A DNA stretch of 64,000 bases, from IMG/VR virus record IMGVR_UViG_3300043539_001475, positions 1 to 64,000 of that record; one strand, given 5' to 3'. The translations under genes and the position numbers were made by a program. The notes below the pieces were generated by a model. The model was not told the origin of the DNA, did not search any database, and saw nothing but the letters and a program-made list of their open reading frames with translations. Below are positions 19,116-37,619 of the stretch, one piece after another (position 1 is the first letter of the stretch; every line of letters starts with the position of its first letter). The stretch is from a virus.

Positions 19116-19146
19116 TTTGTAGTGTCATTTGAATTATTTATATTTG
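19116..19146 (+). promoter_or_regulatory. Bacteroidota housekeeping-sigma promoter for the giant-protein operon
   Basis: TTTG 19116-19119, N19, TATATTTG 19139-19146; implies the true start is ATG 19167. Confidence 0.65.
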
Positions 19147-19166
19147 CTACTTATGTTAAAAAAACT

Positions 19167-22100
19167 ATGAATAAAGAGAAATTAACTGAAAATAAAGCCG
19201 AAGCAACTCCAAGCGGAGGTGTGCTTATAGGCAAGAGGGAAGGTCAAACCATGATTCACAGCAAAGGCTCCTTATCTGGATATTTGGTTGGTAGAACTCA
19301 TGCGGAAGGCGGAATAAAGGCTATCAATAAATCTACTGGACAGCCATTGGAAATGCAGGGAGGCGAGGTGGTTATAACAGCACCAGCCGTTAGCGATACT
19401 ACAAAAAGGGAATTTGAAGGTAGGATGATGACAAATAGGGAAATTTTGTCTGAAATAAATGAAAACGGAGGTGGTGTTTCATTTGCCTATGGCGGTAATA
19501 TACCTACTGAAATGCACTTTAGCGGTAATTCCTATAAGTATGGAGGTAAAACTGTTTCAGACCATGATATAGCTTATGAAATAAGTATTTGTGGTTGTGA
19601 GCATGATATTTTAGGCGATGGTGGTAAAATAGGAGATATGCCTACTTCTATCAAAAAGAAAGTCTTTACCCCAGACGGTGAGAGAAAAATTACTCCAGTT
19701 GCAATTTCTATATTGACAAACTATGTGAACTCTTTACCTCAAACAAAGGAACTTAATACCGATTCAAAAGGCAACTACACAAAAGAAAGACAAGAGCTTC
19801 ATAAAAAAATAATCAATGAATTTAAGGATGAATTAGTTTGTATTCAAAAAGAAGAGCCTATTGCTATTTTAATGGGTGGTTCACCTGCAAGTGGTAAAAG
19901 CACATTTTTAAGAAAATATGCGCCTTATTTACTTGAAGAAGAAATATTAAAAGTAGATGCTGATGAAATTAGAGCTATGTTGCCAGAATACAAAGGCTAC
20001 AACGCTACTCAAACTCATCTTGAAACAAAAGATATTGTCAATACGCTACTAAGCGACAAAACTATTGGTATTCCTTGTAAATACGATATAATTTATGATG
20101 GAACAATGAATAGTACCAAAAGCTACTTGCCTTTGATTGCTTTGCTAAAATCTTTGGGCTATAAGATTTTTATAGTTTACATAGATAATGTGCCAGAAGA
20201 GGTTGTAAAGAAAAGAGCCTTGGAAAGATATAAAAAAAGCGGAAGGTTTGTTCCAATGGAAGTTATTGACGATTTTTATGGAAAAGGAAAAGTCGCACTA
20301 GAAGAATTAAAATTAAAATCCGATGGGTACATGATAATCGATGGCTCAAGTGGAGATTATAACATTTTAGAAAAAAAGGGTCTTAGGCTACCAAAAAAGA
20401 GGTTGTATTCAAAGCTAGGAGAGCCTATATCTAAACTAGAGCAGTTGGTTCATGGTGGTCATTTGTCAAAAGGTATGTCTTTAAAACAAATTGCTAAAAT
20501 GCACGGGGTATCTTTTCTCAAATTGAATAGACAAGTAAAGATGGGATTAAATGCCGAGAGTGAGCATACTCCTAAAGTTACAGAACAAATGAAGATTGTA
20601 AAAGACCACTTGTACGAAAATCCTAATTATTATACGTTACTTAAAGAAGCAGGTTTAGAAAAAGGAGGAAGTTTAAACGGTATTTCCGATTTGAGTCAAA
20701 AAGATTTACAATTATATGACAGAGCTTCTAATGTTAGACCGAGAGATGTAAATCAAAACAATCGGTATCATAGTTATTTAGGATTAAGTGTTTACACTAC
20801 TTCTGAAAATAGAAATAATATTTTTATAGAAAATGTAGATAAAGTTTTTCATAACGTAGATGATGCTGAAAAATATATCGAAGGTAACGACATGGAAGAA
20901 TCTAAAATTCCTTTTTGGATAGGTACAGAAAAAAGATATTATGAATTATATCCAGAAAAAAAAGGTCTTTATAAAAAAGGTGGTGAAGTTGATTATGTAA
21001 CTTATAAAGATAAATACAACAAAAAATATAATTACGATAAAAACACTTCTCACGATTTAGATGAAATTTCGAAAGATACTGGAGTTTCGCTAAAAGGTTT
21101 ACAGCAAATTTACAATAAGGGAATAGGTGCATATAAAACTAATCCTTCAAGCGTAAGACCTAATGTAAAGTCAAAAGAGCAATGGGCAATGGCTAGGGTG
21201 TATAGTGCAGTAATGGGTGGTAAAGCATCAGAAGTAGATTCTAATGAATTAAAAATGAACTATGGTGGAAGATTTCGTAAAGACAACCTTGTAAAAGATG
21301 CCGAAAATGGAAACACACCAGCAAGAGACTTTAATAACTATAACGATGTTATGGATATTCACGCAGATGGAGCTGTTGGTGGGGATAGTGGTATTTTTGC
21401 AAACGGAGGTGCTTTAGGAACTTCGGGATTGCCTTTGGTTGATTATATTGAAATAACATCTTCTGGAAGTAGCCTTGTTAATATTGTTGGAGTTCAGGCT
21501 GATAACTTTGAAAGTTTTAAAAATATTGTTTTTGGAGAGTATAAATTGACACAAAAACCTAGAAGTTTTGTAAATATTCAAGCGTATGACTCGGAAGGTA
21601 ATAAATTGACAAGTGCTAGTTCAGAAATTTCAGACCAAAAAAATACCGTAAAGAACTTTAATCCTTACACTGGCAAGCCTTCGGATTTAGCAAAGTCATT
21701 CGCTAAATCAAGACCAATCAACTTCAAAAAATACGATTGGAGTGAGTGGTTTTCAGGCAAGAAATCAATGCCTAGTAAACAAGCTTCTGCAACTTCTAAT
21801 TTAGTTACTGGTATTTATATTTCATACACTAACCCAACAAATAATAGTCTTAGCTCCTTTACCGTTGACAATGCTAGTGAGTTCTTATACACTTTGCTAA
21901 ACTTGTATAGAAATTCAATTACAAAAATAGATTATAGAATTATTGTAAATGGTAATATTTTAGAAGAAACTATTTCTGATTTAAAGTTAAATGATGACGT
22001 AACTGATAATTGGAGATTGAACTCTAACACAATAAATCCTAAAGTAGCTACTCTTGATGATGTTGCATATAGGTTAGAAAAAGAAAATTCTTTTTTTGAT

Positions 22101-24923
22101 TTTACAAATTTTATGAAAAGTGGTGGTCTTAATGCAATTGGTCAACCTACTAACACATCAACGGTTTTAAGCGAGGTACAAAAAAATATTTCAAGAGATA
22201 ACAAAATAACAGAAATTGTTTTATATAATTCTGTAAGTAAAAGAAATAGCACATATTCTAATTTGCGAAGTCTTTATATGGAAATTAGAGATATTGCTAG
22301 TTTAGTCAACGGGGCTACATTAGACGACTTTATTTCATTTAATTTTATTAATGGGGATGGGTATAAAATAAGTGAAACTAGGAGTATTTTTCATGGAAAT
22401 TCCTATGACGCTCTATTTGTAAACGATGTGATTACTCAAAATGAATTTTTTAGAGCGATTTTTAAAAACTTTCCAGAATTAGAGTTCCGTAAGACACTTA
22501 CTGAAGATTCGGAAAGAGAGGTTTATGAAGATTTCAAAAAAACTGCTCAATCTACTATTTCTACTGGAGCAAATACTGCCACATCAACATCGGGTTTGAT
22601 TGAAATACCAGATTCAAAAAATAATTTTGACGGAAAAGTTTTAAGTCTACCTAGTCCAATATTAGAATTGCTTTCTGTTAGGATAAGAGAACAAAATTTA
22701 GGTAATATATCTAAAATTTTTGACATGCCTATTGAGGAAATAAAAGATGATAATAAAAAGATTTTTAGTTTTGAAAATTCCGTTGATGGATTTAGTTTTT
22801 GGTCTAATATATCTCAAGGGGATTTTACTGAATTTAAGCAAAAATATGGTAAGTACGGTGAGAAAGTAAAAGATATTATCACAACGGCTCAACCTATTGC
22901 AAGTAGCAAGTTTACTTCTGCCGAAATTAAATTGTTTGAGGCAATTGATGATATTGTATTAGAAAATAGTTTAAAAAATGTAGAAATACCAATTTTTGAA
23001 TGGAACTCTACTGGTGCAAAAGATTATGATTTAGTAAACGAAGATACTGGTGAAGTTTTTAAACTTCGTTCTTTTGGAGCAGTATTAGGACTTCAAAATG
23101 GAGATATAAATTTAACAAAATCATTAGCTTTATTGAAAGATTATTTAGATTGGAAAAAAGGAGGTAGTTCAACTGCAACTACAAGTGTATCTAAAACACT
23201 GTCTAAAGAAGATTTAGAAGATATAAAAATTAAAATTAATTCCGACTTTGATTTAGCATTAAAAATAGTTCAAAAATTAGAACAAGTTGGTTTTACCAAT
23301 ACTAGTGGAATAAAAAGAAAAATAGAAAATAAGGAACAATTCCATTCAATTTGGCGTGGTACTGGTAATTATGTAGGATGGTTTATAGATGAAGATAATT
23401 TTAATGATTCTGACAAAAAAGAAATATTTCCTTCCGACATAGGAATAGGTAGTAGTACTGCAACGGCTCAACCTAGTTCAAGTAAATATCCTACTATTAA
23501 TTATCCAACCCAATTAGAACAGACTAAAATTTGGATTGGCGATAATCCTGAACTTTCAAAAAGAGTTCAAGAGAGAGCAATGGAACTTGGATGGGATTGG
23601 TGGAGTGGAGATAAAAAGCCTCAAAATTTAGATTTCTCATGTTTATTTTTTGATGTTGGACAAAAAATAACTGGTAGTGAGACTAGGGTAGGTTTTGATT
23701 CATTTCAAGATTATAAAGAAATATTTGAATCTGATTTATTTGGTAGCGTAACAACGGCTACACAAAATCAACCTACTGCACCTTTAACGGAGGAGCAAAA
23801 AATAGCTAGTGAGTTTGTAGCTGATGATTCTGTATTGCGCAGAAACGATATATTAGGTAGTGCAAGTCTTCGACAAGAAAGAAATGATTTAGATGCCTTA
23901 GCTAAACTATTGCCATCGTTTCAACAATCAAAGTTTTCAGTTGAAAAAGCTAGTATTTTAAAAGAAATGGCTAGGATTCAAAAGAAGTTAGACTATAAAG
24001 GGTTTATTGCTTCTAACGAGGAAGTTTCTAAAGGTAAAGACTTATTTACGCCACAAGGATTGCTAAATTATTACTTTACTCAAGCAACTCAAAATCCTAC
24101 TGCTGAATTACAGCCACCGTGTGAATTACCAACTCCTAATGGAGGTAAAAGTAAATTGCCTTTGGTAGCGTATTTGAATGTAAGAAGTACACAATTTAAA
24201 AAATGGTTCGGTGATTGGGAAAAAGCCTATGAAACCGATAACTATGTTAATTGTTCAAAAATGATTGACGAGGAAACTAAAGAGCCAAAGATATTTTATC
24301 ATGGTGTTAGGAAGTATATTCCTAGCTTTGGTCAAATGAGTAATATGGGTGTTGGTGTAGTTAGACCTTATGGTTCTTTTGAGCCACCAAACTTCCCTGC
24401 TTCTTACTTTGCCGACAATGAAAGCTATGCTAATTTCTATGGCGGTATTGCAGAAAATATGCCGAAACCATCTGAAGGGTATAAGCCTTTCATTTATAAA
24501 GTATTTTTGTGCATTAAAAATCCAATTTCATTACTACCTTTAGATTTTGAAATTAGTTATAAGGATTTGATTGATTATGTTTTAGTTGCTTATGGTATAA
24601 GGCTAAATGTGAATAGCGTTCTATTGAAACAATTAGGTGAAGACATGGATAAAAAACATCCTATATGGATATATGTCCGTAGAGACATAGGATTAATAGA
24701 AACTTTAAAAGATTACGGTTATGATGCTTTAATTCAACAAGGCGATATACCCGTTTTCGACAAAAATGGAGAGGTAGTTTCAGATAGAAGTAAATTTATA
24801 AAAGATACGGAATATTTGTCTTTCTATCCTAATCAGGTTAAGAGTGCAACAGTTAAAAAGAGTTTCTATTTTAACTTTTTCAATGATATAAGATTTAAAA
24901 AAGGCGGTTATGTTCGTATATAA
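19167..24923 (+). CDS. giant polyvalent protein / putative polyprotein (zeta-toxin-like kinase, DUF5661-like, DUF5824-like and ART-PolyVal-like modules)
   Basis: GGSPASGKST...DADEIR...IYDGT (zeta); EHT...KDHLYENPNYY; QIYNKGIGAY...EQWAMARVYS; FKKWFGDW...EPKIFYHG...YFA...EY (ART-PolyVal). Confidence 0.8.
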   Translation: MNKEKLTENKAEATPSGGVLIGKREGQTMIHSKGSLSGYLVGRTHAEGGIKAINKSTGQPLEMQGGEVVITAPAVSDTTKREFEGRMMTNREILSEINENGGGVSFAYGGNIPTEMHFSGNSYKYGGKTVSDHDIAYEISICGCEHDILGDGGKIGDMPTSIKKKVFTPDGERKITPVAISILTNYVNSLPQTKELNTDSKGNYTKERQELHKKIINEFKDELVCIQKEEPIAILMGGSPASGKSTFLRKYAPYLLEEEILKVDADEIRAMLPEYKGYNATQTHLETKDIVNTLLSDKTIGIPCKYDIIYDGTMNSTKSYLPLIALLKSLGYKIFIVYIDNVPEEVVKKRALERYKKSGRFVPMEVIDDFYGKGKVALEELKLKSDGYMIIDGSSGDYNILEKKGLRLPKKRLYSKLGEPISKLEQLVHGGHLSKGMSLKQIAKMHGVSFLKLNRQVKMGLNAESEHTPKVTEQMKIVKDHLYENPNYYTLLKEAGLEKGGSLNGISDLSQKDLQLYDRASNVRPRDVNQNNRYHSYLGLSVYTTSENRNNIFIENVDKVFHNVDDAEKYIEGNDMEESKIPFWIGTEKRYYELYPEKKGLYKKGGEVDYVTYKDKYNKKYNYDKNTSHDLDEISKDTGVSLKGLQQIYNKGIGAYKTNPSSVRPNVKSKEQWAMARVYSAVMGGKASEVDSNELKMNYGGRFRKDNLVKDAENGNTPARDFNNYNDVMDIHADGAVGGDSGIFANGGALGTSGLPLVDYIEITSSGSSLVNIVGVQADNFESFKNIVFGEYKLTQKPRSFVNIQAYDSEGNKLTSASSEISDQKNTVKNFNPYTGKPSDLAKSFAKSRPINFKKYDWSEWFSGKKSMPSKQASATSNLVTGIYISYTNPTNNSLSSFTVDNASEFLYTLLNLYRNSITKIDYRIIVNGNILEETISDLKLNDDVTDNWRLNSNTINPKVATLDDVAYRLEKENSFFDFTNFMKSGGLNAIGQPTNTSTVLSEVQKNISRDNKITEIVLYNSVSKRNSTYSNLRSLYMEIRDIASLVNGATLDDFISFNFINGDGYKISETRSIFHGNSYDALFVNDVITQNEFFRAIFKNFPELEFRKTLTEDSEREVYEDFKKTAQSTISTGANTATSTSGLIEIPDSKNNFDGKVLSLPSPILELLSVRIREQNLGNISKIFDMPIEEIKDDNKKIFSFENSVDGFSFWSNISQGDFTEFKQKYGKYGEKVKDIITTAQPIASSKFTSAEIKLFEAIDDIVLENSLKNVEIPIFEWNSTGAKDYDLVNEDTGEVFKLRSFGAVLGLQNGDINLTKSLALLKDYLDWKKGGSSTATTSVSKTLSKEDLEDIKIKINSDFDLALKIVQKLEQVGFTNTSGIKRKIENKEQFHSIWRGTGNYVGWFIDEDNFNDSDKKEIFPSDIGIGSSTATAQPSSSKYPTINYPTQLEQTKIWIGDNPELSKRVQERAMELGWDWWSGDKKPQNLDFSCLFFDVGQKITGSETRVGFDSFQDYKEIFESDLFGSVTTATQNQPTAPLTEEQKIASEFVADDSVLRRNDILGSASLRQERNDLDALAKLLPSFQQSKFSVEKASILKEMARIQKKLDYKGFIASNEEVSKGKDLFTPQGLLNYYFTQATQNPTAELQPPCELPTPNGGKSKLPLVAYLNVRSTQFKKWFGDWEKAYETDNYVNCSKMIDEETKEPKIFYHGVRKYIPSFGQMSNMGVGVVRPYGSFEPPNFPASYFADNESYANFYGGIAENMPKPSEGYKPFIYKVFLCIKNPISLLPLDFEISYKDLIDYVLVAYGIRLNVNSVLLKQLGEDMDKKHPIWIYVRRDIGLIETLKDYGYDALIQQGDIPVFDKNGEVVSDRSKFIKDTEYLSFYPNQVKSATVKKSFYFNFFNDIRFKKGGYVRI

Positions 24924-26160
24924 TAGTGGTAAATTAGTTGAAAATCCTACACCCATTTCTAGTACAGAGTTTATCTACAGATTAACTCACACTACTAGTG
25001 GAATGAATATAGAGGTTTATGTAAATACAGAAATTGAGAACAGCGACAAGCCTTATAAGGTTTATCGTGAGGAGAATGGTGTGTACACTGTTTACGAAGA
25101 GTTCTACCGAAAAGGCAAAACAACAAAAGAAAATTTCGAGGATGCTATTCTCTACTTTGAAGACAATATCTACAAAGCAATGAAAGAAGTTGCCCCAACT
25201 GAAGAAAGCATAAGACCTGATGATGAAGCTGTGAAACCAGAAACATTTAAAGAGGTTCCTATTGTTGGAGATATAATTCAAGTAGGTAAAAACTACGGTA
25301 TTGTGATAGATGTTAAAGATAATGAAGTGAGTGTTAAAAACTTGACAAAGGAAGAGGCTATGCGAATTTTGAAAAATCAACAAAATGCACAAATAGCAAC
25401 TTCTATTGAGGATGTAGAATTAGCTTTTGGTGGGGATTTAAAGCTTGAAGATGGAGGAACATTTTCTAAATTTTACGCTGATAAAGACAACATAATAATT
25501 TTGAGGGTTAGCCCTCCAAAACCACAAGGAGGTACACCACCACCACAAGAGGGTGAGGAAGAGCCACCACAGCCACCAACGCCACAAGAGCCAATTCCAG
25601 AAAACGTGAAAAACCCTTTTGATGAAGCTCCTGAACAAGAAGAAGGGGGTAATCCTCCGCCACAAGAAGGTAATCCACCACCACAAGGAGGAGAGCAAGA
25701 GCCACCGCAAGAAGGCGAAGGAGAAGGCGAAGGAGAAGGCGAAGGAGAAGGCGAAGGAGAAGGCGAAGGAGAAGGCGAAGGAGAAGGCGAAGGAGAAGGC
25801 GAAGGAGAAGGCGAAGGAGAAGGCGATGGAGAAGGCGATGGAGAAGGCGATGGAGAAGAGCCAAAAGGCGGAAACGCAGAGGGCGATGATTTTGGAGATG
25901 AAAATGGTGAGCCTACAAAAACCTTAGAGGAACTAATGAGAGATATTCAAGAATCATTCGAAAAAGGACAAAGTGCTGATGATATTCAGTTGAAAAGCGA
26001 TGTTGAAACTTTAGAAAGAGCTTTGGCTACTCCAAAAGATAGAATAAAAGAAACATTTAAAACCTTAGCTGTTGCCAAGTCAGCAATTGGAAGAACAAAC
26101 ATATTTGGCACAGACAACGAGAACAGATTAAATCAAACATTAAACGAAATATTCAAATAA
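24910..26160 (+). CDS. acidic protein with Pro/Gln-rich and (GE)n linker
   Basis: 416 aa; KOW-like VGDIIQVGKNYGIV; LAFGG and LEDGG motifs. Confidence 0.75.
   Translation: MFVYNSGKLVENPTPISSTEFIYRLTHTTSGMNIEVYVNTEIENSDKPYKVYREENGVYTVYEEFYRKGKTTKENFEDAILYFEDNIYKAMKEVAPTEESIRPDDEAVKPETFKEVPIVGDIIQVGKNYGIVIDVKDNEVSVKNLTKEEAMRILKNQQNAQIATSIEDVELAFGGDLKLEDGGTFSKFYADKDNIIILRVSPPKPQGGTPPPQEGEEEPPQPPTPQEPIPENVKNPFDEAPEQEEGGNPPPQEGNPPPQGGEQEPPQEGEGEGEGEGEGEGEGEGEGEGEGEGEGEGEGEGEGEGDGEGDGEGDGEEPKGGNAEGDDFGDENGEPTKTLEELMRDIQESFEKGQSADDIQLKSDVETLERALATPKDRIKETFKTLAVAKSAIGRTNIFGTDNENRLNQTLNEIFK
25711..25857 (+). repeat. 12-bp coding tandem repeat gaaggcgaagga (EGEG)
   Basis: Visible directly, about 12 units. 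Confidence 0.95.
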
Positions 26161-26161
26161 A

Positions 26162-27511
26162 ATGGAAGGAATTACAAAAGACGAATTATTAAATTTTGCC
26201 GAAAATAGCAATAACACGCTTATACAAACTTTAGCTAAACAGAAAATGCAAGATGAATTTGCTGGCGATATAGTCGCTCAAAAAATGATTCAGCTTTCAC
26301 AATTATTAGGTCAATCTAGTGGAGGTTCAAGCCTTGACGAAGAAGAAGTCAAAAGAATAGTTAGAGAGGAAATCGAAACTGATAAAATTACTTTTGAGGA
26401 TTTAGATGACACCGTAAAAAAACTATTGTCTAATCAAACCGCTAATGTAACTTTAAATGTTACAAAAGGGGGTGTTGTAACTGTTGTTAAATTAGCTTTA
26501 GACCCTGAGTTCAAAAGACCTTTAATACAAAAGATGCTTAGTGATGTTTTAGCAAGAAACAATGTGTATTTGTATGGTGGTGCAGGAACGGGTAAATCTT
26601 ATTCTGCCAATATTCTAAAGAAAATATTAGGTTGGGATGTAATAGAAATTAGTTGTAGTCAATTTACTTCTGCATTAGAAATTATAGGAGGTCAAACTAT
26701 CGATGGTTATCAAGAAGGAAAAGTTGTTAGAGCTTTTGGAAATTTAGATAAAAACGGTAATCCTACTGGTAGGGGATGTATTTTACTGTTAGATGAGTTA
26801 CCTAAAATCGACCCAAATACAGCAGGTATGTTAAATTCCGTGTTAGCTAGAGTTGGTGAATATAAAGATGGCATAGCATCGACTATACAAAATGCAAGAG
26901 GAGATGTTATAGAACGTGGAGAATGTTTTATTATGGCTACTGGAAATGCGTTGTTAAACACAAAAGACCCAGATTACGAAGCTAACTTTAAGCAGGATTT
27001 ATCGTTACAAGACCGTTTTGCTGGTTCTACTTACAAAGTGGTGGTAGACATTGAAGGTGAATGGGAAGGCATATTGAATAAAAAATGGGCTTTCATTTTT
27101 ATTTATTTGAATAAACTAAGAAAGGCAATACAACAAGAAGGCTTTTTATCTAAAGCTTTTGTTTCTATTCGTTTAATCATGTCTGTTCAAAAAACTTACA
27201 ATGTATTTAGACAAGTTAAAGAAAATGCAGGAAATGTTAAGTCTTTTAAACAAGATGAAGAGGTGTCTTACACTCCAGTAATTAATGAAAGAGGATTAGG
27301 GATAATAGAAGCTAGTCAAGTTAAAACGGTTAAAGACTCTATGGACGAATTTTTCAGCTTATTCACAACAGAACAATCTGATATTTTGAAAAGCAAAACG
27401 GATTATGAGGGATGGTTGCGTATTGTGAATGAAAAGAACAAAATTCCAATGGACAAATTAAATACTCCATCTGAATTAGAAGAAGTAAAAGAAATTATAA
27501 AAAATAAATAA
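26162..27511 (+). CDS. MoxR/CbbQ-type AAA+ ATPase
   Basis: Walker A GGAGTGKS, Walker B LLLDE, ATGN sensor 1, SLQDRF arginine finger. Confidence 0.88.
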   Translation: MEGITKDELLNFAENSNNTLIQTLAKQKMQDEFAGDIVAQKMIQLSQLLGQSSGGSSLDEEEVKRIVREEIETDKITFEDLDDTVKKLLSNQTANVTLNVTKGGVVTVVKLALDPEFKRPLIQKMLSDVLARNNVYLYGGAGTGKSYSANILKKILGWDVIEISCSQFTSALEIIGGQTIDGYQEGKVVRAFGNLDKNGNPTGRGCILLLDELPKIDPNTAGMLNSVLARVGEYKDGIASTIQNARGDVIERGECFIMATGNALLNTKDPDYEANFKQDLSLQDRFAGSTYKVVVDIEGEWEGILNKKWAFIFIYLNKLRKAIQQEGFLSKAFVSIRLIMSVQKTYNVFRQVKENAGNVKSFKQDEEVSYTPVINERGLGIIEASQVKTVKDSMDEFFSLFTTEQSDILKSKTDYEGWLRIVNEKNKIPMDKLNTPSELEEVKEIIKNK

Positions 27512-29184
27512 TGCAATTAGACAACTTATTTGAGGTAATTAAACAAGTAGGGCAAAAGCCCTTTGCTTCTTTTGTAAGTAGTTCAACTTCGGCTTCTGTT
27601 CAAGGCTCTTCATCATTTGATAATATGAGTACAAATGGCTTTATTTTTCAGCAATTTAAAACACTAGAGGATGCTTTTAATAAGAAAAGCGAAATAGAGG
27701 CTAAAATAAAGAAAAAAAGGTATGAAACAATAGCATTATCGTATGTGTCAGAAGTAAGGTTTAATGATTATAAATCTTTTACAGATTACATAAATCAACC
27801 AAAACGTGATTTTGAAAAAACAAAGGAACTAAGTGCTTCTTTTATTGAAAACATAAAAACCTTAATAAATTTAGGAGGGCTTTTCAAAAATGACAAAATT
27901 ATAGTTACCGAAGATACTAGAGGTGTTTTTGACTTTGGACTAGCTAGTTTGGGATTATTCAGACCGATTGAATTTTATTCACAAGATTTAGCTGATGATA
28001 TAAAAGCAGGAATAGTTAATAATCCTTTCCCTAGTTATGAAAATGGAATTGTTGATGGCGATAATATAAAAAAACAAGTTATAGGCGAACTAAGTATTTT
28101 TACATACGTTCTTGACGGTAAAAAATACGATTGCGAAAGAAGACAAAGAGGAGCCACTAAAGTTTTTAAAACCTTTTTTGAAGAGTGCTTTTTGAAACCA
28201 GATAAAGATGGACTTTTGATAACCTACTACCTTGAAAATAAAGAAAAGGTTTTTAATGGTAGAGGTGATGTTAGATTGAAATACGCTTCTAGCAACAAAA
28301 AGTCTTACTTGATTTACAATAAGAAAGATGATTCTGTAAAGAATGTAGATATTTTTATGCCCATAAATCTTATGGGAGTTCAAGACGGTGCTAGAGCTTT
28401 GGCTTTATTGCCTGCTTATCTAATATCTGCATCATTAGAAAACTTTGGTATTCAGTCAAGAATTAGCGCATTGAGGTTAGGCTCTGATGAAGAAACTTCA
28501 ATAACTATTTCAATACCAGTTAAGGATTACGAAGAATCCACGAATGAAGCTTTTAATAAAGCATTTACCTTACTTTCTTTAGAAAGTGCTGGAGGAAGTT
28601 TTTTTGCTTTTCATAAGGTTATTGCTGGAAATGAAGGTATTCAAGCAAATCCAACTAAGGTTACTAAAGCAGGATTTGATAGTGTTTATTATTGGTCGCA
28701 AAGGTATATTGACGATATGATGCAACGATACAAAAATTGGGCTAATGTAAACAAGGATAAGGATTTTGTTAATACAAAGGTTATAAATCAAAATTTTCAA
28801 TTTGGTTTAACAACTCCAGATAATTCTCCAGTTGGTAGGGTATTAGGTTATGCTGATATTTTAGAAGGACTGCACCAAGTGTTTTATCTTTTCTATTTCT
28901 ATATGGATTATTTATCTATTGAAATGTTGGATATGAAGGATTTTATTAAGAGCGTTTACACTAGATTTACAGAAGATGTTACTTTTAGAAAAATATATCA
29001 AATGCCGAGTGCAAAAGACGAAATTAAAGCCCTATTAAGGTCTTATGTTTTGACAATGTTAGTTCAAAAATATAAGTTAGTTTCGGGTGGTGCTTATTCA
29101 GATACGGCAGAGCAAAAGCAAAACAAAGAGGAAACTTTTCAGAAGAAAGTAATTTCGTTGAACGAACAAATAAATAATATATAA
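27511..29184 (+). CDS. AAA+ partner protein, possibly divergent vWA/CobT-like
   Basis: Coupled to the MoxR gene; no clear DxSxS MIDAS motif, so the call rests on gene order. Confidence 0.45.
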   Translation: MQLDNLFEVIKQVGQKPFASFVSSSTSASVQGSSSFDNMSTNGFIFQQFKTLEDAFNKKSEIEAKIKKKRYETIALSYVSEVRFNDYKSFTDYINQPKRDFEKTKELSASFIENIKTLINLGGLFKNDKIIVTEDTRGVFDFGLASLGLFRPIEFYSQDLADDIKAGIVNNPFPSYENGIVDGDNIKKQVIGELSIFTYVLDGKKYDCERRQRGATKVFKTFFEECFLKPDKDGLLITYYLENKEKVFNGRGDVRLKYASSNKKSYLIYNKKDDSVKNVDIFMPINLMGVQDGARALALLPAYLISASLENFGIQSRISALRLGSDEETSITISIPVKDYEESTNEAFNKAFTLLSLESAGGSFFAFHKVIAGNEGIQANPTKVTKAGFDSVYYWSQRYIDDMMQRYKNWANVNKDKDFVNTKVINQNFQFGLTTPDNSPVGRVLGYADILEGLHQVFYLFYFYMDYLSIEMLDMKDFIKSVYTRFTEDVTFRKIYQMPSAKDEIKALLRSYVLTMLVQKYKLVSGGAYSDTAEQKQNKEETFQKKVISLNEQINNI

Positions 29185-29507
29185 TGAGAAATACTGTAAA
29201 AATAACCCAAGAGCAAATTAAAGGTATGTACGAACATTTACAAAAGCTACCTGCTAACTCGCATAAAAAAGATTTAAAGATTTTTTACAATCCATTAATG
29301 CCAAAAAACGTATATATTAGATATACTAGTTTTTTTCTTGAACCCGATAATAGCATTAGTTCTAATGTGACATTGAGTTGTATTAAGCCTGACGGTTCAA
29401 AAGGAAATTGCGCAGACGATTTTGATAATTTAAAACAAAGATTAGAATTTGAATCACAATTTTTACCAATCGATTTAGATGCTAATAGAAACATAGTTTT
29501 TTTATGA
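29184..29507 (+). CDS. hypothetical protein
   Basis: Coupled ORF. Confidence 0.6.
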   Translation: MRNTVKITQEQIKGMYEHLQKLPANSHKKDLKIFYNPLMPKNVYIRYTSFFLEPDNSISSNVTLSCIKPDGSKGNCADDFDNLKQRLEFESQFLPIDLDANRNIVFL

Positions 29508-29872
29508 GGAATTTTAAAAACATATCTGGAGACCTTTTAGCTATTGCATATTTACCTAAAGAGGATAGAAATTCTGCTTTGGAAGACTTGAACATAATTA
29601 TAGGCGCATATCCTGATAGCGATATATCAAGAGAGCAAAAGCAATTAATACAAGAAATTATTGAGGATTTAATTAAAGAAAATACTCTTATAGAAGGGGT
29701 TTCTCAAAAGCCAAAAGCGAAGACAAGAGCGACTAAAAAGAGTATTGAGCAAGTAGAGGTAGTCCAACCTGAAATCGTTGAAGAAGAAGTTGTACAAGAG
29801 CAACCTAAAGCAATAGTAGAGCAAGAAGTAGAAACCATAACATCAATAGAAGATATTGATGACGCATTTTAA
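29504..29872 (+). CDS. hypothetical acidic protein
   Basis: Coupled ORF. Confidence 0.6.
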   Translation: MRNFKNISGDLLAIAYLPKEDRNSALEDLNIIIGAYPDSDISREQKQLIQEIIEDLIKENTLIEGVSQKPKAKTRATKKSIEQVEVVQPEIVEEEVVQEQPKAIVEQEVETITSIEDIDDAF

Positions 29873-29891
29873 ACAATAAAACAAAAGAGAA

Positions 29892-32800
29892 ATGACTATT
29901 AAACAAAAATTCGAAAGGATAGACCAAAGCAAACTTGAGCCAAATCAAGTAAATGCCTTAAAAATTGTGGTAGATTTTACTGAAAATTTTAAAACAAAGG
30001 ACAAGGAAAAAATTAAGATTACTAACGACAAGCTAGATACTATTATTGGTAAGTTGCAGGAAAAAAATCCTGATGCTTTGAAGCCAATTCCTACTGCTAA
30101 AAAATCAGTAGGTGCTAAAAAAACTACTAGTGTTAAAACGCCAAAAAGAAATGTTTTTTCGGTTGCCAAAGAAATTAAGAAAGCAGGAGAAACTTTTGAG
30201 CAAGCAAAGGTTAGAGCTTCTAAAATGATGAAGCAAGAAAAGGAAGAGGCTAATAAAATAGTCAAAACTGAAATGCAAAAGCTACAAGAGTACATTAAAG
30301 AGCATAAAGAGCTTCAAGGTATTTCTGGAACTGATTTAGGTAGAGATGCGGTTAGAGTTGCTAAAGTTGGTGGTGTAAGAACTGTAACTCGTTCAGGCTC
30401 TACAACAAATCAATATGGTACTTTTGACAATAAGCTAGGTAGAAGATATAGCGAAAATAGAGAAAACCGTAAAGATAGACTTGCGCCAAACTATCCTAAA
30501 TATGCTCCTTTGTTGGAGAATGGTGGAGTGGTTAGAACTTTTGATGATGTTTTTGGAAAGACTAAAATTTTTAAAGAAGAAAAGGTAGGTAAATTTACAA
30601 TCGGAATAAGTAGTGGCTTTAGAGATAATAGACACGTTTATATTTACGAGGGAGGATTAGGAGAGTACAATGGAAAATCATTGCCAAAAAACTTCAGACA
30701 ATCTCCACAACTATCAATTTCTGAAGCAAACGACTATTATTCTCATTTAAAGAAAAAAAATGAGAAAATGGAATTAGGCGGTACTTTCGCTCCAAATGTT
30801 TCAAACGGAACTCAATTCATGGGTAGTGTTTATGCAAAAGGCGGAGACCTTAAAGGTTTTAGCGATAATCAACTTATGATAATGAATCAAAATAATCAGC
30901 TAGAATATTACCAAGAAGAATTGGAGGATATTTTAGAAGATAAGACCGAAGTCCCTGCTTGGGTAGTTGCCGAGATGGCTACTGCCACTCAAAACATTTC
31001 TGATGTCACACATTATTTAGATGGAGAAAAAGAAATTTTAGAAGAAGAGCAAGAAAATTTAATGGAGCAAGAGGATGAAGACGAAGTAATTGTAAATAAC
31101 ATTCCTCTTCCTTCGGCTAAAAAAACTGAACTAACCAAAAAGTTTACTGAAGATGCTTTAGTTAATTTGAAAGGGTTCTTAAAAGGCAAAGAAGGAGTAG
31201 AGTTAGAAGACGATTATACTTTTATTTACAACGGAGAAAAATATGAAATTGAACCAATAATTGATAGTGATGATGATGGTGTTTTAAATGCCTTGTTTAC
31301 AGTTTACAATAAAGATGATGAGGAAGTTGGAGAAATAACCTATATGCGTGGAAGTGGAAAACAAAAGTTTAATGCTAAATCAAATTTCTTCAAGTGGAGT
31401 AATACAAAATTTGCAGATGGTGGTGCTATAAAAAATCAATATGAGAGCAGGACAATCGAAAATATTTGGAATAATTGGACACTATCACAAAAACTACATT
31501 TTTTAAGTGACCATTCTGAAGAGGTTTATGGAAGTCCATCGGTAAAAGGTCAAGTTAATAATAAAATAAATGAGTTTTTCGGTAAACTAATTTATCAAAA
31601 ATATGACGATTTGCCTTTAAATACAAAAGTTGCTTTGATTATGCACACAACTCGTGGTCAATATGCTTATGGTGGAGGAATGGAAGGAAATAACATTGAT
31701 GCTGAATTAGAAGACTTTGATATAGATGAATTAGACGATTTTGAAACTATGCAGTACAATCAGTTTTTACCAAGTTCAGGTAAAGTTGGTGCATTGCAGA
31801 TTCTTATAAATAATGTTGAGGGAGATTATTCTCAATTAAGCGAAGAATTGGCTGAATTGGCTGAAAAGCAAATGTCAAGCGAAGAATATGACGAAGCGAC
31901 AAGGGATATGAGATTTGAAAGAGATGGGTACGCCAACGGCGGAATGATGGCTAAAGGCGGTGCTTTTAAACCTTACGGAAAAACAAAAGGAAGATATACA
32001 ATAAATTACATAGCAGATTCTAAAAAGCAGTCAGAAATTTGGGAAACAAAAGAAATGGCTGTAACTAATGCAAAAAGATATACTAAAATTGATGAATATT
32101 CAGATGTAATGGTTTTTGATGATAAAGGCACAAAAATAGATTTTCTATACGGAGGGTCTTATGCTGACGGGGGAGAATTAAAAGGCAAATTTTTAGCAGA
32201 AATTGGAGTTCCTTACAATTACGAAAAAGTTGTTGAAGATAAATTCGGATTTACTGAATTTTTATCAAAAACACTTACAAAAAAATGGTTTGGTAATGGT
32301 GTTTGGCGTGTTACAATGGTAAAGCCATTATTTGAAAAAAACTACGGGCAAAAAATAGTTGTTGAAATTGACATACCTTTAGGGGTAACTCAAGGAGGCG
32401 GGTTAGATAAGTTTGACGTTTTAGAATTTATGTCAAAAACATTAACTAAAAAATGGTTTGGTAACGGTGTCTGGAGTGTTGAAGTAGTTAACAGTTACGC
32501 TGACGGTGGAGAGTTAAATGGACAAGAAACTATAAATTTAAAATCTTATAATATTCACGGTCAACTTTTAGATAGTGGTAAAATCGTTGTAGATTACGAT
32601 GATAGCACAATTCAGTTCCCATCGGGAAAAACACTTAAAGTTGTTCCCGACAGGGAGTTTACTTATAGGTTTCAAAAAACACAAATCAAAGCATCACAAG
32701 GAATAAGAGGTTTGGTTGAGTTCTTAAAAGAAATAAACAATGAAAAAAGTCCTTTTAATCCGTCAGTAACAAGTTTATTTATTGATTTTGGCAAAGATGG

Positions 32801-35800
32801 TAAATACGCTAACGGAGGCTCACTTCCATTTATGACAGACCCTACTTTTGGAAACTTTCAAAATCAAGTTTATGCTAAAGGCGGTATTATTGTTACTAAA
32901 ATTAAAGATATACCTAACTTGAAAGACAAGGTAGAAAAAGGACAAGTAACTTATAGAGGTTTGGGCTTAGGAAAATTGGCTGATGACTTTTATAAATTAG
33001 CAGGTCAAAACGGAACTAGAATTAAAGTTGATGGGCAAGAGTATTTTATAACCGATGATGATTTTAAGGAATTGGATTGGGATTTTAAAAATGAAAAATG
33101 GATGAACAAAGTTAGATTTAGTGCATCTGCTAGAAAATATGATATAGGCGGAGTTGTGGTTGAGGATTTAGCTGGTCATACTGGCGGTTCTTTTAGCACA
33201 AATACTCCAACTTTATTAAGTGGAGTTAGCGACACTAATTATGGTGGTCTTACAGGTGAAACTGGCGCTATGTCTGCTGGTGAAATGTTTGCAACAGGAG
33301 GTTCCCTTGAAGAATTTAGCGATAATCAACTTATGATAATGAATCAAAATGTTGAACTAGAACATCACCAAGAGGAATTGGAGGATATTTTAGAGGATAA
33401 GACTGAAATACCTGCTTGGGTAGTCGCTAAAATGGCTACTGCTACTCAAAGCATTTCTGATGTTACGAATTATTTAGACGGAGAAAAAGAAATTTTAGAA
33501 GAAGATGACGAAATCGTAAATGAAACTACTCTTACTTTGGCAAAAAAAAATGAACTAACAAATAAGTTTACAGAAGACGCTTTGGTTAATTTCAAAGGGT
33601 TCTTAAAAGGTATGGAAGATATTGATTTGAGAGATGATTATAGTTTTGACTATAGAGGACAAAGATTTGAAATATACCCAATTGTAAACGCTGACGAAAA
33701 TGGTGTTTTTGATGCCATGTTTAGTATTTTTAATGTGGATGGAGAAAAAGTGGGAGATGTTTCTTATAGTATCTACGGTGGAAAACAAAAGTTTACAGCC
33801 AACTCTGAATTTTTCGGTTGGAATAATACGAAGTTTGCATACGGTGGAAAGACTAAAATAGGGCAATCAATGAAAGAACTTTACATTGGACAAATTGCCT
33901 CATTAACAGGCACAAGAACAGTTGGTATTGAAAAGTTTTTAGATGATAATAAATTAACTGAATCTGAATTATCAAATTTGATGACAGGTATTGGTAGAGG
34001 TATGGTAAAAAGAAACGATTTTGTTACTGCTTTAGTAGGAGAAAAAGGAAACCCTATTCAAAAAGAAATAATTGCCTTTGCAAAATCTGATAAAGCATAT
34101 AAAATGGCTTATGGCGGAGTTGTGGTTGAGGATTTAGCTGGTCATACTGGCGGTTCTTTTAGCACAAATACTCCAACTTTATTAAGTGGAGTTAGCGACA
34201 CTAATTATGGTGGTCTTACAGGTGAAACGGGCGCTATGTCTGCTGGCGAAATGTTTGAAATGGGCGGAGGACTTCCATCTGGTGCAGAACAAAGGTATGT
34301 AGATTATTATTTAAACCCTTCTCCAATTTTAGCAGAAGGAGGTAAAGTAGATTCGTTCATCCCTAATGTTGGTACTATAGACAATTATATGTTAAAATCA
34401 TTGTTGATTAGGAATCCTAAAGTAAAATTGGCTTTGGGTGACAAAGAATTTGAATTTTTAAAAAATAAAAATACTGATTGTATTGGAGTAAGTAGTAAAC
34501 CGTATAACGTAATTGTTACAGATGGTAAAGAAGAGTTTGAGTTAGATATGAAAAAATGGTCGCTTACAAAACCTCTTACAGAAGCAAGAACTAAAATAAA
34601 ATCTCATTATTCTGCAAATTACGCAGAAGGAGGTTCACTAGAAGCCCACGGTATAGAAGAAGGAGATACTTTTATTAAAACAATAGCAGGTAGTATTCAA
34701 AAAGTAAAAGATGTAGACGGAAAAATTGTTTTCATTAACCTATCTACGGGCGAAAGAGATTCTCAACCACCTTTGCCGTTTAAAAAAGGAGGCAATGTTG
34801 ATGGCAAGTGGGTAAACCATAGTCAAGACTACGAGGTTAGATATGCAAAAGGTAAAAACCGACATGGTTACGGTCATATTAAATATTTAGGAGGCGGTGT
34901 AGTTGATGGGGCTTTAAACAAAAAAGTTTATGATTTAGCGAGTAAAAGCGGTTTTTTAATTAGTGATTGGAGTACTTCTGAATATAACTTAATTTTAGCT
35001 CAAGCATTAGTTGAATCTTTAACGGATGCTAATTTCCACAGTGAAGCTAAAGAGGTTGTTGCTAAATTAGAAAAGAAACCGTGGTCTGATGAAATGTATG
35101 AAACAGTTTATTATGACCCTGATAAAGATGTTGTTGAATTTTCTATCACAGTAGCTAGAATTTGTGATTATGGTGGAGATGATATTGTAAACGCATATTA
35201 CTATTTGGCTAAAATGCAAGGCTCAAGCGTTGGTAATTTGATTGACGACTTATTTTTAAGTAAATCTAAAACAACTGGCTATAAAATAAAACCAAGTACT
35301 GTTAGCTTTTCTATATTTGAAAAAATAATTAATGAAAGTAAATCTGAAGAAGATGCTTTTAACAAAGCAAGAGAAGTAAAAGGTATTCCTCTTGAAGTAT
35401 CTAAATCTTTTATGAATAAATACGACCCAAATAGAGAATTAACACCTAGACAATCTTTTTCTAAATTTTATAAAGAAGTAAAAGCAAATGCTTCAAAACC
35501 AAGCACTGTTAGCTTCAAACCAACTGTTGAATTTAACGTAGGTGATGTGGTTTGGAATAAAGAAGATAAAAGATACGGAGTTGTAATGGATAACTACGAC
35601 AATAAGACAGACGGAAATAGAGGTGAAATAAGGCTTGATTCTACTGGCAATACTTATATTTTTGAATACGACAAAAAATCTAATAGAAACGGCTACAATC
35701 TTGTTAAGTTTGGCTCTAGCGAAGATGATGGAGACGGAGATGTTCAAGATATAAAAGACAGTGCCAATAGATTGATAAAATCTCAAATTGAATATAAAGA

Positions 35801-37619
35801 CAAAAAAAAGGAAAAGTATTATAGAGAAATTTTCAAAAGAGTTTTAGGGGGTGAGTTTGATAAAAAAACAAAATCAAACTTAAATCGACATGGATTTAAT
35901 GTAAAAATCGAAGAGGTTTCTGCAACCGAAAACGGAAAAAACAAATTGCTATATGGAGCAAATATCTTTTTTAAAGACGATTTAGTAAGGTTTTTTCCAG
36001 CAGTTAGTGGTGATAGAAAAAAAATAGAAGATAGCATAGAATCTTGGTTTAAAAGTTTAAAATCTTGGGAAAAAAATAATCCTCAATCAAGAAAAAGCGG
36101 AGACTTTGTTGTTTTTTACAATCAGAGAGGTGATGAGGCTAAAATGACTTTTGACAACAAAAAAGATGCCTATGATTTTTACGATGCTTTGAAAAAGGTA
36201 GAAGCTGATAACATTATTGTTTCAGAAGCACCTATTGCAAAAATGATTCCTAATCTTAAAAAATATTACGTTTCTCACGACAATATTGAGAGCGTTACAT
36301 TAAAAAAAGGAGGTAAAGAGGTAACTTACGATGCAAAAGATGTTTTGAACGGTGCTAATATGCTTGAAAAAGGAGGTCGAGTAGAAAAGATAGCAAACTA
36401 TATTTCTAAAAACAATGTAGTTCATGTTGAATTAAAAGACGGAACACACATTAAGCCTTCTAATGGATATTGGATTAAGAAAGGGGCTACTCCAATTAAT
36501 AAAATGGATGAAGGCGGAAACTTAGATAAAGTTAAATGGCAAGATGCAGAAATAGGAGATAGCGCAAGGGTTAAAGATGTGAATAGAATGGGGCTTATAA
36601 TTAAAAATTATGGTAGAAAATTTCATTTAATGTTTCCTAACGGAACAGAAAAAACTTTTGACGCTTCTGATTTAGAGTTTTTCAAATTAGAAAAAGATGA
36701 ATATGAAATGGACGATGATTATAATTACAAAAAAGGCGGAAAAGTAGAAGAAGCAACTATCAATAAAGATGGTATTCGAGTACGTTCTGTTTCACAACCT
36801 AAAAAGAAGCTTACAGAAGCTGAATGGTTGGCTAAATATAGCGAATCTAAAGAAGCTAGAAGCTACAAGTCAGGTGGTGATTTAAGCAAGTACAGCGAGT
36901 TTATACAAGACGAGTTTGCTTCATCAAAAAGATTGGCTAATAAGTTTGCTAAAAAATACAATTTACCGTTCTTAGTTTTGGTTGAAAAAGATAATGATGA
37001 TGAAATTTATGTAAAAGAAGCAAACGGATTTTACGCATTTCCAAAATCATATATCGATGCTCACGATGTGCTTTATGTAACTGCGGATAAAATGGCTGAA
37101 GGTGGAGTAACCTTTGATGAAAAATCAAGCTCAATAGCCAAGAAATTTGTAGGCAAAGCTGTCGAACCTAAATACCAAAAAGAATACGGAAAAGTTTACT
37201 CTAAAGAGGAGGCTAATGAAGTAGGAGACAAGATTGCAGGTAGTATGGTAGCAAAAGAGAAAATGAAAAAAGGTGGTGATTTTCCAGATTACGGAGAAAC
37301 AGTAGATGCAAAAGACATTGATTACGATATGAAAAGTTATTTTAATAGGACTAATAAAAAATTAGTGATAACTACTAAAGATAACAAGAAATCGAATGGT
37401 TCAGTTACCAAATTCTACAATGATTTAATATTTGTGACAAAAGAAAAACACGATATTCCATTAAAAGATATTCGAAATGTAAAAATTTTGGAAGAAAAAA
37501 TGGCTAAAGGTGGTGTGACTAATAGAGGTGGTATTATGCTATTAGCTAAACAGATACGAAAAGAAAACGAAAGTTGGAAAGACGCATTAAAGAGAGCTGG
37601 AGAGCAATTGAGAAAGTAG
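29892..37619 (+). CDS. 2575-aa putative virion core polyprotein with about 28 [FYML]xxGG motifs
   Basis: Repeated YAKGG/FADGG/YANGG/MAKGG etc.; internal duplicated modules; basic termini. Confidence 0.75.
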   Translation: MTIKQKFERIDQSKLEPNQVNALKIVVDFTENFKTKDKEKIKITNDKLDTIIGKLQEKNPDALKPIPTAKKSVGAKKTTSVKTPKRNVFSVAKEIKKAGETFEQAKVRASKMMKQEKEEANKIVKTEMQKLQEYIKEHKELQGISGTDLGRDAVRVAKVGGVRTVTRSGSTTNQYGTFDNKLGRRYSENRENRKDRLAPNYPKYAPLLENGGVVRTFDDVFGKTKIFKEEKVGKFTIGISSGFRDNRHVYIYEGGLGEYNGKSLPKNFRQSPQLSISEANDYYSHLKKKNEKMELGGTFAPNVSNGTQFMGSVYAKGGDLKGFSDNQLMIMNQNNQLEYYQEELEDILEDKTEVPAWVVAEMATATQNISDVTHYLDGEKEILEEEQENLMEQEDEDEVIVNNIPLPSAKKTELTKKFTEDALVNLKGFLKGKEGVELEDDYTFIYNGEKYEIEPIIDSDDDGVLNALFTVYNKDDEEVGEITYMRGSGKQKFNAKSNFFKWSNTKFADGGAIKNQYESRTIENIWNNWTLSQKLHFLSDHSEEVYGSPSVKGQVNNKINEFFGKLIYQKYDDLPLNTKVALIMHTTRGQYAYGGGMEGNNIDAELEDFDIDELDDFETMQYNQFLPSSGKVGALQILINNVEGDYSQLSEELAELAEKQMSSEEYDEATRDMRFERDGYANGGMMAKGGAFKPYGKTKGRYTINYIADSKKQSEIWETKEMAVTNAKRYTKIDEYSDVMVFDDKGTKIDFLYGGSYADGGELKGKFLAEIGVPYNYEKVVEDKFGFTEFLSKTLTKKWFGNGVWRVTMVKPLFEKNYGQKIVVEIDIPLGVTQGGGLDKFDVLEFMSKTLTKKWFGNGVWSVEVVNSYADGGELNGQETINLKSYNIHGQLLDSGKIVVDYDDSTIQFPSGKTLKVVPDREFTYRFQKTQIKASQGIRGLVEFLKEINNEKSPFNPSVTSLFIDFGKDGKYANGGSLPFMTDPTFGNFQNQVYAKGGIIVTKIKDIPNLKDKVEKGQVTYRGLGLGKLADDFYKLAGQNGTRIKVDGQEYFITDDDFKELDWDFKNEKWMNKVRFSASARKYDIGGVVVEDLAGHTGGSFSTNTPTLLSGVSDTNYGGLTGETGAMSAGEMFATGGSLEEFSDNQLMIMNQNVELEHHQEELEDILEDKTEIPAWVVAKMATATQSISDVTNYLDGEKEILEEDDEIVNETTLTLAKKNELTNKFTEDALVNFKGFLKGMEDIDLRDDYSFDYRGQRFEIYPIVNADENGVFDAMFSIFNVDGEKVGDVSYSIYGGKQKFTANSEFFGWNNTKFAYGGKTKIGQSMKELYIGQIASLTGTRTVGIEKFLDDNKLTESELSNLMTGIGRGMVKRNDFVTALVGEKGNPIQKEIIAFAKSDKAYKMAYGGVVVEDLAGHTGGSFSTNTPTLLSGVSDTNYGGLTGETGAMSAGEMFEMGGGLPSGAEQRYVDYYLNPSPILAEGGKVDSFIPNVGTIDNYMLKSLLIRNPKVKLALGDKEFEFLKNKNTDCIGVSSKPYNVIVTDGKEEFELDMKKWSLTKPLTEARTKIKSHYSANYAEGGSLEAHGIEEGDTFIKTIAGSIQKVKDVDGKIVFINLSTGERDSQPPLPFKKGGNVDGKWVNHSQDYEVRYAKGKNRHGYGHIKYLGGGVVDGALNKKVYDLASKSGFLISDWSTSEYNLILAQALVESLTDANFHSEAKEVVAKLEKKPWSDEMYETVYYDPDKDVVEFSITVARICDYGGDDIVNAYYYLAKMQGSSVGNLIDDLFLSKSKTTGYKIKPSTVSFSIFEKIINESKSEEDAFNKAREVKGIPLEVSKSFMNKYDPNRELTPRQSFSKFYKEVKANASKPSTVSFKPTVEFNVGDVVWNKEDKRYGVVMDNYDNKTDGNRGEIRLDSTGNTYIFEYDKKSNRNGYNLVKFGSSEDDGDGDVQDIKDSANRLIKSQIEYKDKKKEKYYREIFKRVLGGEFDKKTKSNLNRHGFNVKIEEVSATENGKNKLLYGANIFFKDDLVRFFPAVSGDRKKIEDSIESWFKSLKSWEKNNPQSRKSGDFVVFYNQRGDEAKMTFDNKKDAYDFYDALKKVEADNIIVSEAPIAKMIPNLKKYYVSHDNIESVTLKKGGKEVTYDAKDVLNGANMLEKGGRVEKIANYISKNNVVHVELKDGTHIKPSNGYWIKKGATPINKMDEGGNLDKVKWQDAEIGDSARVKDVNRMGLIIKNYGRKFHLMFPNGTEKTFDASDLEFFKLEKDEYEMDDDYNYKKGGKVEEATINKDGIRVRSVSQPKKKLTEAEWLAKYSESKEARSYKSGGDLSKYSEFIQDEFASSKRLANKFAKKYNLPFLVLVEKDNDDEIYVKEANGFYAFPKSYIDAHDVLYVTADKMAEGGVTFDEKSSSIAKKFVGKAVEPKYQKEYGKVYSKEEANEVGDKIAGSMVAKEKMKKGGDFPDYGETVDAKDIDYDMKSYFNRTNKKLVITTKDNKKSNGSVTKFYNDLIFVTKEKHDIPLKDIRNVKILEEKMAKGGVTNRGGIMLLAKQIRKENESWKDALKRAGEQLRK

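Follow-up and report, generated by a model that had tools for sequence, protein, structure and literature searches.

The window analysed in this work comprises the first 64 kb (positions 1 to 64,000) of the IMG/VR virus record IMGVR_UViG_3300043539_001475, a single contig of 101,210 bp with a G+C content of 31% that is 100% complete according to CheckV, and nearly all genes of the window are carried on the + strand. Two giant open reading frames (ORFs), here termed A and B, are divided by many copies of a short motif, originally described as [FYML]xxGG, which proved to be the core of a seven-residue signal with the consensus [Y/F/M]-[A]-[D/K/N]-G-G-x-[V/I/L/M/F], referred to below as the heptad. 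For comparison, two related complete genomes were retrieved in full, G001 (102 kb) and G002 (73 kb); the present record is denoted G000. The giants, and those of their parts on which the argument depends, are located as follows (lengths in amino acids, aa).

19122..24923, + strand: giant ORF A, 1933 aa, with 10 copies of [FYML]xxGG and a motif-free region at aa 1003-1924 (motif list, Pfam).
19626..20459, + strand: Zeta-toxin module of A, aa 169-446, extending from LGDGG to LVHGG, with 72% identity to a 315-aa gene of G002.
24894..24914, + strand: terminal heptad of A, FKKGGYV, located 2 aa before the stop and immediately after the ART-PolyVal module (read from the sequence).
29892..37619, + strand: giant ORF B, 2575 aa with 2 Cys, divided by 29 motifs into approximately 30 segments of 6-472 aa (motif map).
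29892..30512, + strand: constant N-terminal module of B, aa 1-207, common to the whole protein family (HMMER).
30846..31424, + strand: 193-aa module of B, aa 319-511, a paralog of aa 1138-1319 (nucleotides 33303-33848) with 62% identity, end to end between motifs.
33249..34166, + strand: segment of B, aa 1120-1425, modelled with AlphaFold2, in which a beta domain (1216-1316) and a helical bundle (1327-1404) were confident.
37515..37616, + strand: conserved 34-aa C-terminal tail of B following the last heptad (..LAKQIRK..SWKDALKRAGEQLRK), which ends about half of the homologs.

The 29 copies of [FYML]xxGG in B compare with a mean of 3.7 in residue shuffles (standard deviation 1.8, maximum 11; z ~14), and the 10 copies in A with a mean of 2.0 (standard deviation 1.4); the original prediction had reported about 28 and at least 8 copies, respectively. 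A regular-expression count also agreed with the two copies claimed for the ORF starting at 24910 and the one in the ORF starting at 43453, and the coordinates assigned earlier to copies in A (LGDGG at 19625, LVHGG at 20459, LEKGG at 20669, YKKGG at 20984 and MNYGG at 21269, with FKKGG 4 aa from the end of the protein) were all found to be correct. Gly-Gly pairs as such were over-represented approximately twofold, and F, Y, M or L occupied position -3 in 66% of the pairs in B. Comparison with the rest of the proteome, which had been put forward as a check, established that the strict heptad occurs at 5.8 per 1000 aa in the giants as compared to 0.26 per 1000 aa elsewhere in G000 (~27,000 residues; odds ratio 22, p = 1.5e-16), while the cargo proteins of G001 and G002, set against the rest of their proteomes, gave odds ratios of 21-165. 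A logo of 1807 instances from 84 proteins revealed that the first position is taken by Y (41%), F (36%), M (15%) or L (8%), the second by A (70%) or E (13%), and the third by D (33%), K (26%) or N (13%), followed by GG-x and then V, I, L, M or F, with flanks that are almost uninformative. The spacing between heptads has two peaks, one of 10-30 aa and one of 60-130 aa. A published account of the heptad, or of phage Gly-Gly polyproteins, was not found in the literature.

The first homolog search was seeded with words and could therefore have favoured motif-rich proteins, and for this reason aa 1-205 of B, the N-terminal module, which is free of the motif, served as HMMER query against a database of 1.84 billion representatives. 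This module matched 211 proteins at E <= 0.001, and the 111 of these that extend 100 aa or more past it were retained. These 111 proteins, chosen by the N-terminal module only, contain 988 copies of [FYM]xxGG in 76,890 aa where 93 are expected, corresponding to 12.8 per 1000 aa, and the lowest density of the heptad core in any one of them was 6.3 per 1000 aa; the heptad is accordingly conserved across the family. Some small family members are made up solely of the N-terminal module followed by a single heptad and a brief ..KHKxD tail. B has 83 strong mosaic homologs, 1400-3300 aa in length, each of which shares 4-25% of B, and among whose domains are DUF2958, RelA_SpoT and ART-PolyVal. The C-termini of B-type proteins are of two kinds, being either of the form ..AK.IRK..ESW.DA.KRA..LKK (e.g. 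..AKKRAFAQLKK) or a 100-aa module ending in ..SNKHKND. A 50-aa module rich in Gly, Ser and Thr (..DLAGHTGGS..LSGVS.T.Y.GL.GETGAMS.GEMF), present twice in B at 33153-33302 and 34119-34268 with 96% identity, is among the modules most widely common to the B homologs.

The heptads lie at the edges of modules which related viruses shuffle, fuse and split. When B was aligned with its mosaic homologs, 66-67% of the ends of high-scoring segment pairs (HSPs; n=532) fell no more than 8 aa from a motif, as compared to 18% for random positions, and a typical HSP begins at the first residue of one motif and finishes 0-2 aa past the next GG. Homolog coverage along B changes in steps, and the two internal duplications of B are each bounded precisely by motifs. 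In A, Pfam matches were obtained to Zeta_toxin (238-400), DUF5661 (455-509), DUF5824 (604-705) and ART-PolyVal (1721-1912), in addition to many more modules that are unassigned, which bears out the earlier description of the giants as strings of effector modules. The accompanying claim that the motif stands at domain edges held for the HSP ends, for the duplications and for the Zeta_toxin and DUF5661 matches, both of which lie inside motif-bounded segments, but not for DUF5824, whose match straddles a motif and starts 18 aa before it.

Modules which are fused in A occur as separate genes in G001 and G002, with the break points at motifs. The 315-aa free-standing zeta gene of G002 carries one heptad behind an 11-aa leader (MKDSHIDYSDY-YENGGKV) and a second which precedes its C-terminal tail (..MESGG-ATESRTPDYLRMFLGK), while the ART-PolyVal and DUF5824-like modules are found in G001 and G002 in separate genes of 300-760 aa with heptads at the joints and a ..P[DE]YL[RK]MFLGK tail. 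The latter tail also directly follows the last heptad in mid-size cargo proteins of relatives (L026-L035; e.g. G002:C1:9517-12359). From their sequences, these alternative tails, whether of the MFLGK type or of the B-type ends, look like packaging or targeting peptides.

Coincidence of exchange break points with the motif is also what would be expected were the motif a DNA-level recombination signal for in-frame cassette exchange with no role in the protein. The heptads, however, employ all synonyms (GGT, GGA, GGC and GGG; GCA, GCT and GCC; TAT and TAC) and share no conserved nucleotide word, and their conservation tracks amino acids, which renders this explanation hardly tenable. As every synonymous codon occurs at heptads, selection acts on the protein rather than on the DNA. 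Across seven proteins of roughly colinear make-up, orthologous sites are most conserved in the two glycine columns (identity 0.91-0.93) and least in the two x positions (0.62-0.66), with position 1 exchanging between Y, F and M. Retention of GG while the x positions vary, together with the use of all synonyms, indicates that each copy is preserved by selection on the protein, which is what a requirement for every junction to function would predict.

The heptad is also located at extreme termini, at 2-4 aa from C-termini and at 6-15 aa from N-termini. Proteins of the A type end in F-[EK]-x-G-G-x-[VI] plus 1-2 residues, and relatives whose ART module is just 25-27% identical still end in FETGGKV-N or FENGGKI-KN. 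A 310-aa basic protein encoded in the early minus-strand region (genome 90929..91861, - strand; L002:9932-10861:-) ends in FEKGGKI, and the last seven residues conform to [F/L]-x-x-G-G-x-[I/V/L/A/T] in 119 of its 120 homologs, down to 36% identity. As this family ends exactly in the heptad, the heptad is a unit that works at a free C-terminus too.

In the only segment of B that was modelled (AlphaFold2, 18-row alignment), the motifs at aa 1133, 1315 and 1405 fall in stretches at domain ends where the predicted local distance difference test (pLDDT) is below 50, with the F and A of FAYGG predicted to be part of the beta strand that closes the preceding domain. Such positions, and the fact that Gly-rich linkers are common, would suit a passive hinge or domain cap, in which a flexible GG and hydrophobic residues that close the modules would assist bead-by-bead folding or passage through a channel with no factor acting in trans. 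We consider this improbable, as the choice of residues is too narrow for a hinge (Y, F or M and rarely L, I or V at position 1; Ala in 70% at position 2), as the same heptad stands beside unrelated folds and persists at extreme termini, where a hinge would have no domain to connect, and as the remaining multidomain proteins encoded by these genomes lack it. With both the hinge and the DNA signal disfavoured, what remains is a signal read in trans, and the sharp seven-residue logo, its uninformative flanks and the unrelated folds on either side argue for such recognition. Three further interpretations of the residues themselves were rejected: Lys-Asp/Asn isopeptide cross-links, because position 3 is too variable; tyrosine modification, because F and M freely replace Y; and signal peptidase I, because the giants are without a membrane anchor, even though A-x-G would satisfy the -3/-1 rule.

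Our preferred reading, which we hold to have about an even chance of being correct, is that A and B are strings of autonomous modules, that the heptad is a proteolytic processing site and that the giants are polyproteins. The modules, typically of 50-200 aa, would fold independently and move between proteins, with nearly every junction consisting of one heptad in a flexible linker that serves as a linear signal for a trans-acting factor. A protease would cut the heptad and thereby free the modules as small effectors, either at virion maturation or after delivery, and packaging may be the task of the conserved N-terminal module and of the tails at the C-terminus (..KRAGEQLRK, ..SNKHKND, ..PDYLRMFLGK). 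Cleavage is favoured because some 30 copies are each maintained, because modules are autonomous genes in relatives, because separate packaging-like tails exist, and because both phage-head and Gly-Gly proteases provide precedent. The scissile bond could lie after GG, after the hydrophobic residue at +2 or, in the case of a zincin, before the aromatic residue; a cut after the +2 hydrophobic would leave every module with the same C-terminus as the 310-aa family.

The original prediction proposed cleavage after Gly-Gly by a viral cysteine protease of the Ulp1/adenain or C39-like type, and the GG core with its upstream hydrophobic residue does resemble the adenain consensus (M/I/L)XGG|X. This proposal did not hold up. 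Peptidase_C48, C5 and C39 gave no match at E <= 10 in six-frame searches of the CheckV-complete record, although profile hidden Markov models could miss a very divergent member, and Pfam and PHROG scans of about 100 ORFs detected neither a cysteine protease nor a maturation protease, the only peptidase being an M15 endolysin. In addition, the hydrophobic residue of the heptad is at P5 and not at P4, which is occupied by Ala, and B, with 2 Cys in 2575 aa, can have no cysteine protease of its own. Processing by such an enzyme is therefore very unlikely. A conserved 214-aa Cys/His protein (46127..46771) was also considered as a protease and was instead assigned to be a PAP2 phosphatase.

The best, and the only, protease candidate is instead a zincin-like protein encoded downstream of the giants.

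57537..58322, + strand: 261-aa core protein with an N-terminal beta-sandwich and a zincin-like domain (HEFSH, 188-192), candidate processing protease.

This ORF is present in four of four relatives at 65-67% identity and belongs to a family of 1117 database clusters, nearly all of 261 aa. Several homologs of the heptad-ending 310-aa protein stem from contigs with the same lengths as contigs that bear the zincin. Residues H188, E189, H192, E202, E204 and D206 are invariant among 39 sequences and include a complete HExxH motif. The AlphaFold2 model has a pLDDT of 91 and suggests a CBM-like sandwich for the N-terminal domain, while residues 109-255, when compared with VIA-align, matched three zincins of the M48 type, BepA (Z 8.4 over 119 aa, root-mean-square deviation 3.8), 3c37 (Z 6.8) and Ste24 (Z 6.2). 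Foldseek returned nothing from the PDB at E <= 0.001, and the ESM Atlas gave weak leads to DUF4344 (0.85) and M48 (0.82). The zincin may be the enzyme which cuts the heptad.

A number of observations weigh against processing, and against the zincin as its agent. No known Gly-Gly protease family is detectable in the genome, where six-frame Pfam searches for C48, C5, C39, Prok-JAB, S78, M48 and MPTase-PolyVal were without a match. The best fold match of the zincin barely exceeds the noise level stated for the tool, the protein is without any Pfam hit and without a Peptidase_M48 match at E <= 10, and it is tied to the heptad by co-occurrence alone. A different motif, [FY]xN[AFLV]xG, has 10 copies in the proteome as compared to 3.1 ± 1.7 in shuffles, and eight of these ten are in four structural proteins whose genes flank that of the zincin (window 52694-59178) and which include a 233-aa capsid candidate that is 78-79% identical in relatives; as judged from this distribution, these proteins may be the real zincin substrates. 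Shuffling edges of B at aa 1875 and 2026 are without a clean motif, and the model of the B linker segment has a low mean pLDDT of 55.6 and was built from a shallow alignment. Finally, the 310-aa family stops two residues after GG in 119 of its 120 members, where removal of a dipeptide seems pointless, and its heptad thus looks more like a recognition tag.

The last of these points leads to the alternative, already raised in the original prediction as capsid docking, that the heptad stays uncut and acts as a tag for recognition or docking, bound for example by the capsid, a membrane component, a MoxR-type AAA+ chaperone or a translocation channel, in which case tagged cargo genes would have become fused and the giants would remain intact. 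The exact C-terminal position of the heptad in the 310-aa family and its location 1-2 aa from the C-terminus of A-type giants are consistent with such a tag, and tandem copies 6-25 aa apart, which make up ~20% of spacings, would suit avidity. A gene cluster encoding an AAA+ protein is located between the giants in all relatives, and no Gly-Gly protease was detected in the genome. On the other hand, the terminal tails and the constant N-terminal module already resemble packaging signals, one tag per protein should suffice yet some 30 copies are each maintained, and heptads behind short N-terminal leaders misfit an origin as a C-terminal tag. We regard such a tag as less likely than cleavage, but as a serious alternative.

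If the heptad is a processing site, a more far-reaching scenario can be formulated, which we advance tentatively, as something short of an even prospect: a large group of uncultivated bacterial viruses would use a polyprotein strategy in which a metalloprotease cuts the heptad approximately 30 times per gene and converts two to three giants into dozens of mini-effectors of 50-200 aa, probably with anti-defence functions and supplied together with the genome, while the heptad would serve in addition as a terminal tag on single proteins. If cutting does take place, the giants would amount to a Gly-Gly polyprotein system with densely spaced sites in a bacterial virus, with a metalloprotease as its probable agent, a strategy otherwise typical of eukaryotic viruses, and a large catalogue of effector modules could then be read off sequence data by means of the code. 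The heptad also offers a means, from sequence only, of splitting thousands of giant metagenomic proteins into functional units, most of which are uncharacterised small modules and candidates for anti-defence or host-takeover functions.

Further genes of the window carry the heptad or lie between the giants.

24910..26160, + strand: 416-aa acidic low-complexity protein with PE/GE repeats and the tandem heptads LAFGGDL and LEDGGTF (nucleotides 25420-25464; motif count).
26162..29184, + strand: MoxR/CobS-like AAA+ ATPase (449 aa) and a 557-aa partner (Pfam AAA_5, AAA and weak bpMoxR; homologs in 6 related loci).
43567..43587, + strand: single heptad YEDGGVF in a 116-aa protein with one transmembrane segment (43453..43803; motif count).

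The trio at 24910-29184, made up of the acidic protein, the AAA+ ATPase and the 557-aa partner, is situated between the giants, with its synteny preserved in relatives, and might act on A and B as a chaperone or as a system for loading them. Gene order is conserved in the related loci, of which a scan of viral contigs with an alignment as query yielded 12 and a scan of metagenomes 6, B alone having given no match among viral contigs. When 50,697 phage records were searched with tblastn, B and the zincin were without a match and thus without a cultured relative, and matches to A were limited to zeta-toxin or DUF5824-like pieces. The Pfam and PHROG scans of about 100 ORFs recognised no terminase, HK97 capsid or prohead protease; Peptidase_S78 gave no match and no prohead protease PHROG was found among 33 late proteins, S77 and S80 not having been searched separately. 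A possible portal was represented by one weak unassigned PHROG match (E 2.9e-4).

The first 8 kb of the window harbours five N6/N4 DNA methyltransferase genes and an MT-A70 gene (1943-7910), and in the relative L011 a methyltransferase is joined via a heptad to the ..HKND tail module, that is, a methylase occurs as cargo. A highly conserved core block at 46127-49602 extends from the PAP2-type phosphatase, which is soluble and carries the motifs KxxxxxxRP, PSGH and SRxxxxxHxxxD, to a 272-aa FtsK/HerA-like ATPase, and also encodes a 150-aa protein, a 128-aa protein that resembles a PD-(D/E)xK nuclease by eye and has one weak unattributed PHROG resolvase match, and a 392-aa acidic protein. The last of these was considered as a capsid protein and rejected, being of low complexity with ERAERA repeats. 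Beyond the window, three Cys/Gly-rich fibre-like giants of 1233 aa (61 Cys), 763 aa and 960 aa are encoded at genome positions 70929-80053 and are followed at 80516-82703 by ORFs resembling a sulfotransferase and an APS kinase (P-loop); Pfam lists sulfotransferase, APS kinase and beta-propeller/Vgb-lyase-like families among the scanned ORFs from 69.6 kb to the genome end, without reporting their attribution to individual ORFs.

Judged by their domain make-up, A and B belong to the polyvalent proteins as defined by Iyer, Burroughs, Anand, de Souza and Aravind (2017, PMC5512222), who described giant mosaics of unrelated effector domains encoded by phages and conjugative elements. Both are encoded by a virus record, A combines four Pfam domains and B approximately 30 separable modules where two unrelated domains per polypeptide would suffice, and their mosaicism is evident from the stepwise coverage, the HSP ends and the fusion and fission of zeta and ART modules among G000, G001 and G002. 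ART-PolyVal and Zeta toxin are shared with the described proteins, as are DUF2958 and RelA_SpoT in the homologs. Zincin-like peptidases were proposed to process polyvalent proteins (PMC5512222), in which the MPTase is part of the polypeptide, whereas MPTase-PolyVal is absent here; that paper describes no junction motif and does not contain the word 'glycine'. A sharp junction code that holds across the family makes it possible to test whether, and by what route, polyvalent proteins are dismantled, a question that dates from 2017. The modules reported here differ further in being mostly of 50-110 aa, each punctuated by a heptad.

Cleavage of large virion cargo by one protease at many short consensus sites is known from phage heads, where gp21 of T4 cuts at L/I-x-E and gp175/gp245 of phiKZ/SPN3US cut internal or ejection proteins at S/A/G-x-E, and the giants, if cut, would be similar in this respect. 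The phage-head sites, however, have Glu as their last residue, and the enzyme that cleaves them is a serine prohead protease of the herpes/T4 kind; no prohead protease is detectable here, while the present site is based on Gly-Gly and is approximately ten times denser. Cutting next to Gly-Gly is itself common, being carried out by adenain, pS273R of African swine fever virus, coronavirus PLpro, deubiquitinases and C39 peptidases. Adenain cleaves at (M/I/L)XGG|X and pS273R cuts pp220 and pp62 at GG|X; both resemble the present system in the Gly-Gly core with an upstream hydrophobic residue, and their polyproteins mature inside the virion. The heptad is distinguished by its hydrophobic P5, Ala at P4 (70%) and conserved hydrophobic P2', no clan CE gene was found in the genome, and the cargo is effector-like where that of adenain and pS273R is a core-shell protein. 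Ubiquitin-like precursors and double-glycine leaders are processed by enzymes whose narrow pocket admits only Gly, and the former have a C-terminal GG with a short extension much as in the GG-x-I of the 310-aa family; the heptad, in contrast, is mostly internal and repeated, and neither a beta-grasp fold nor a peptidase of the JAB or C39 type was detected here.

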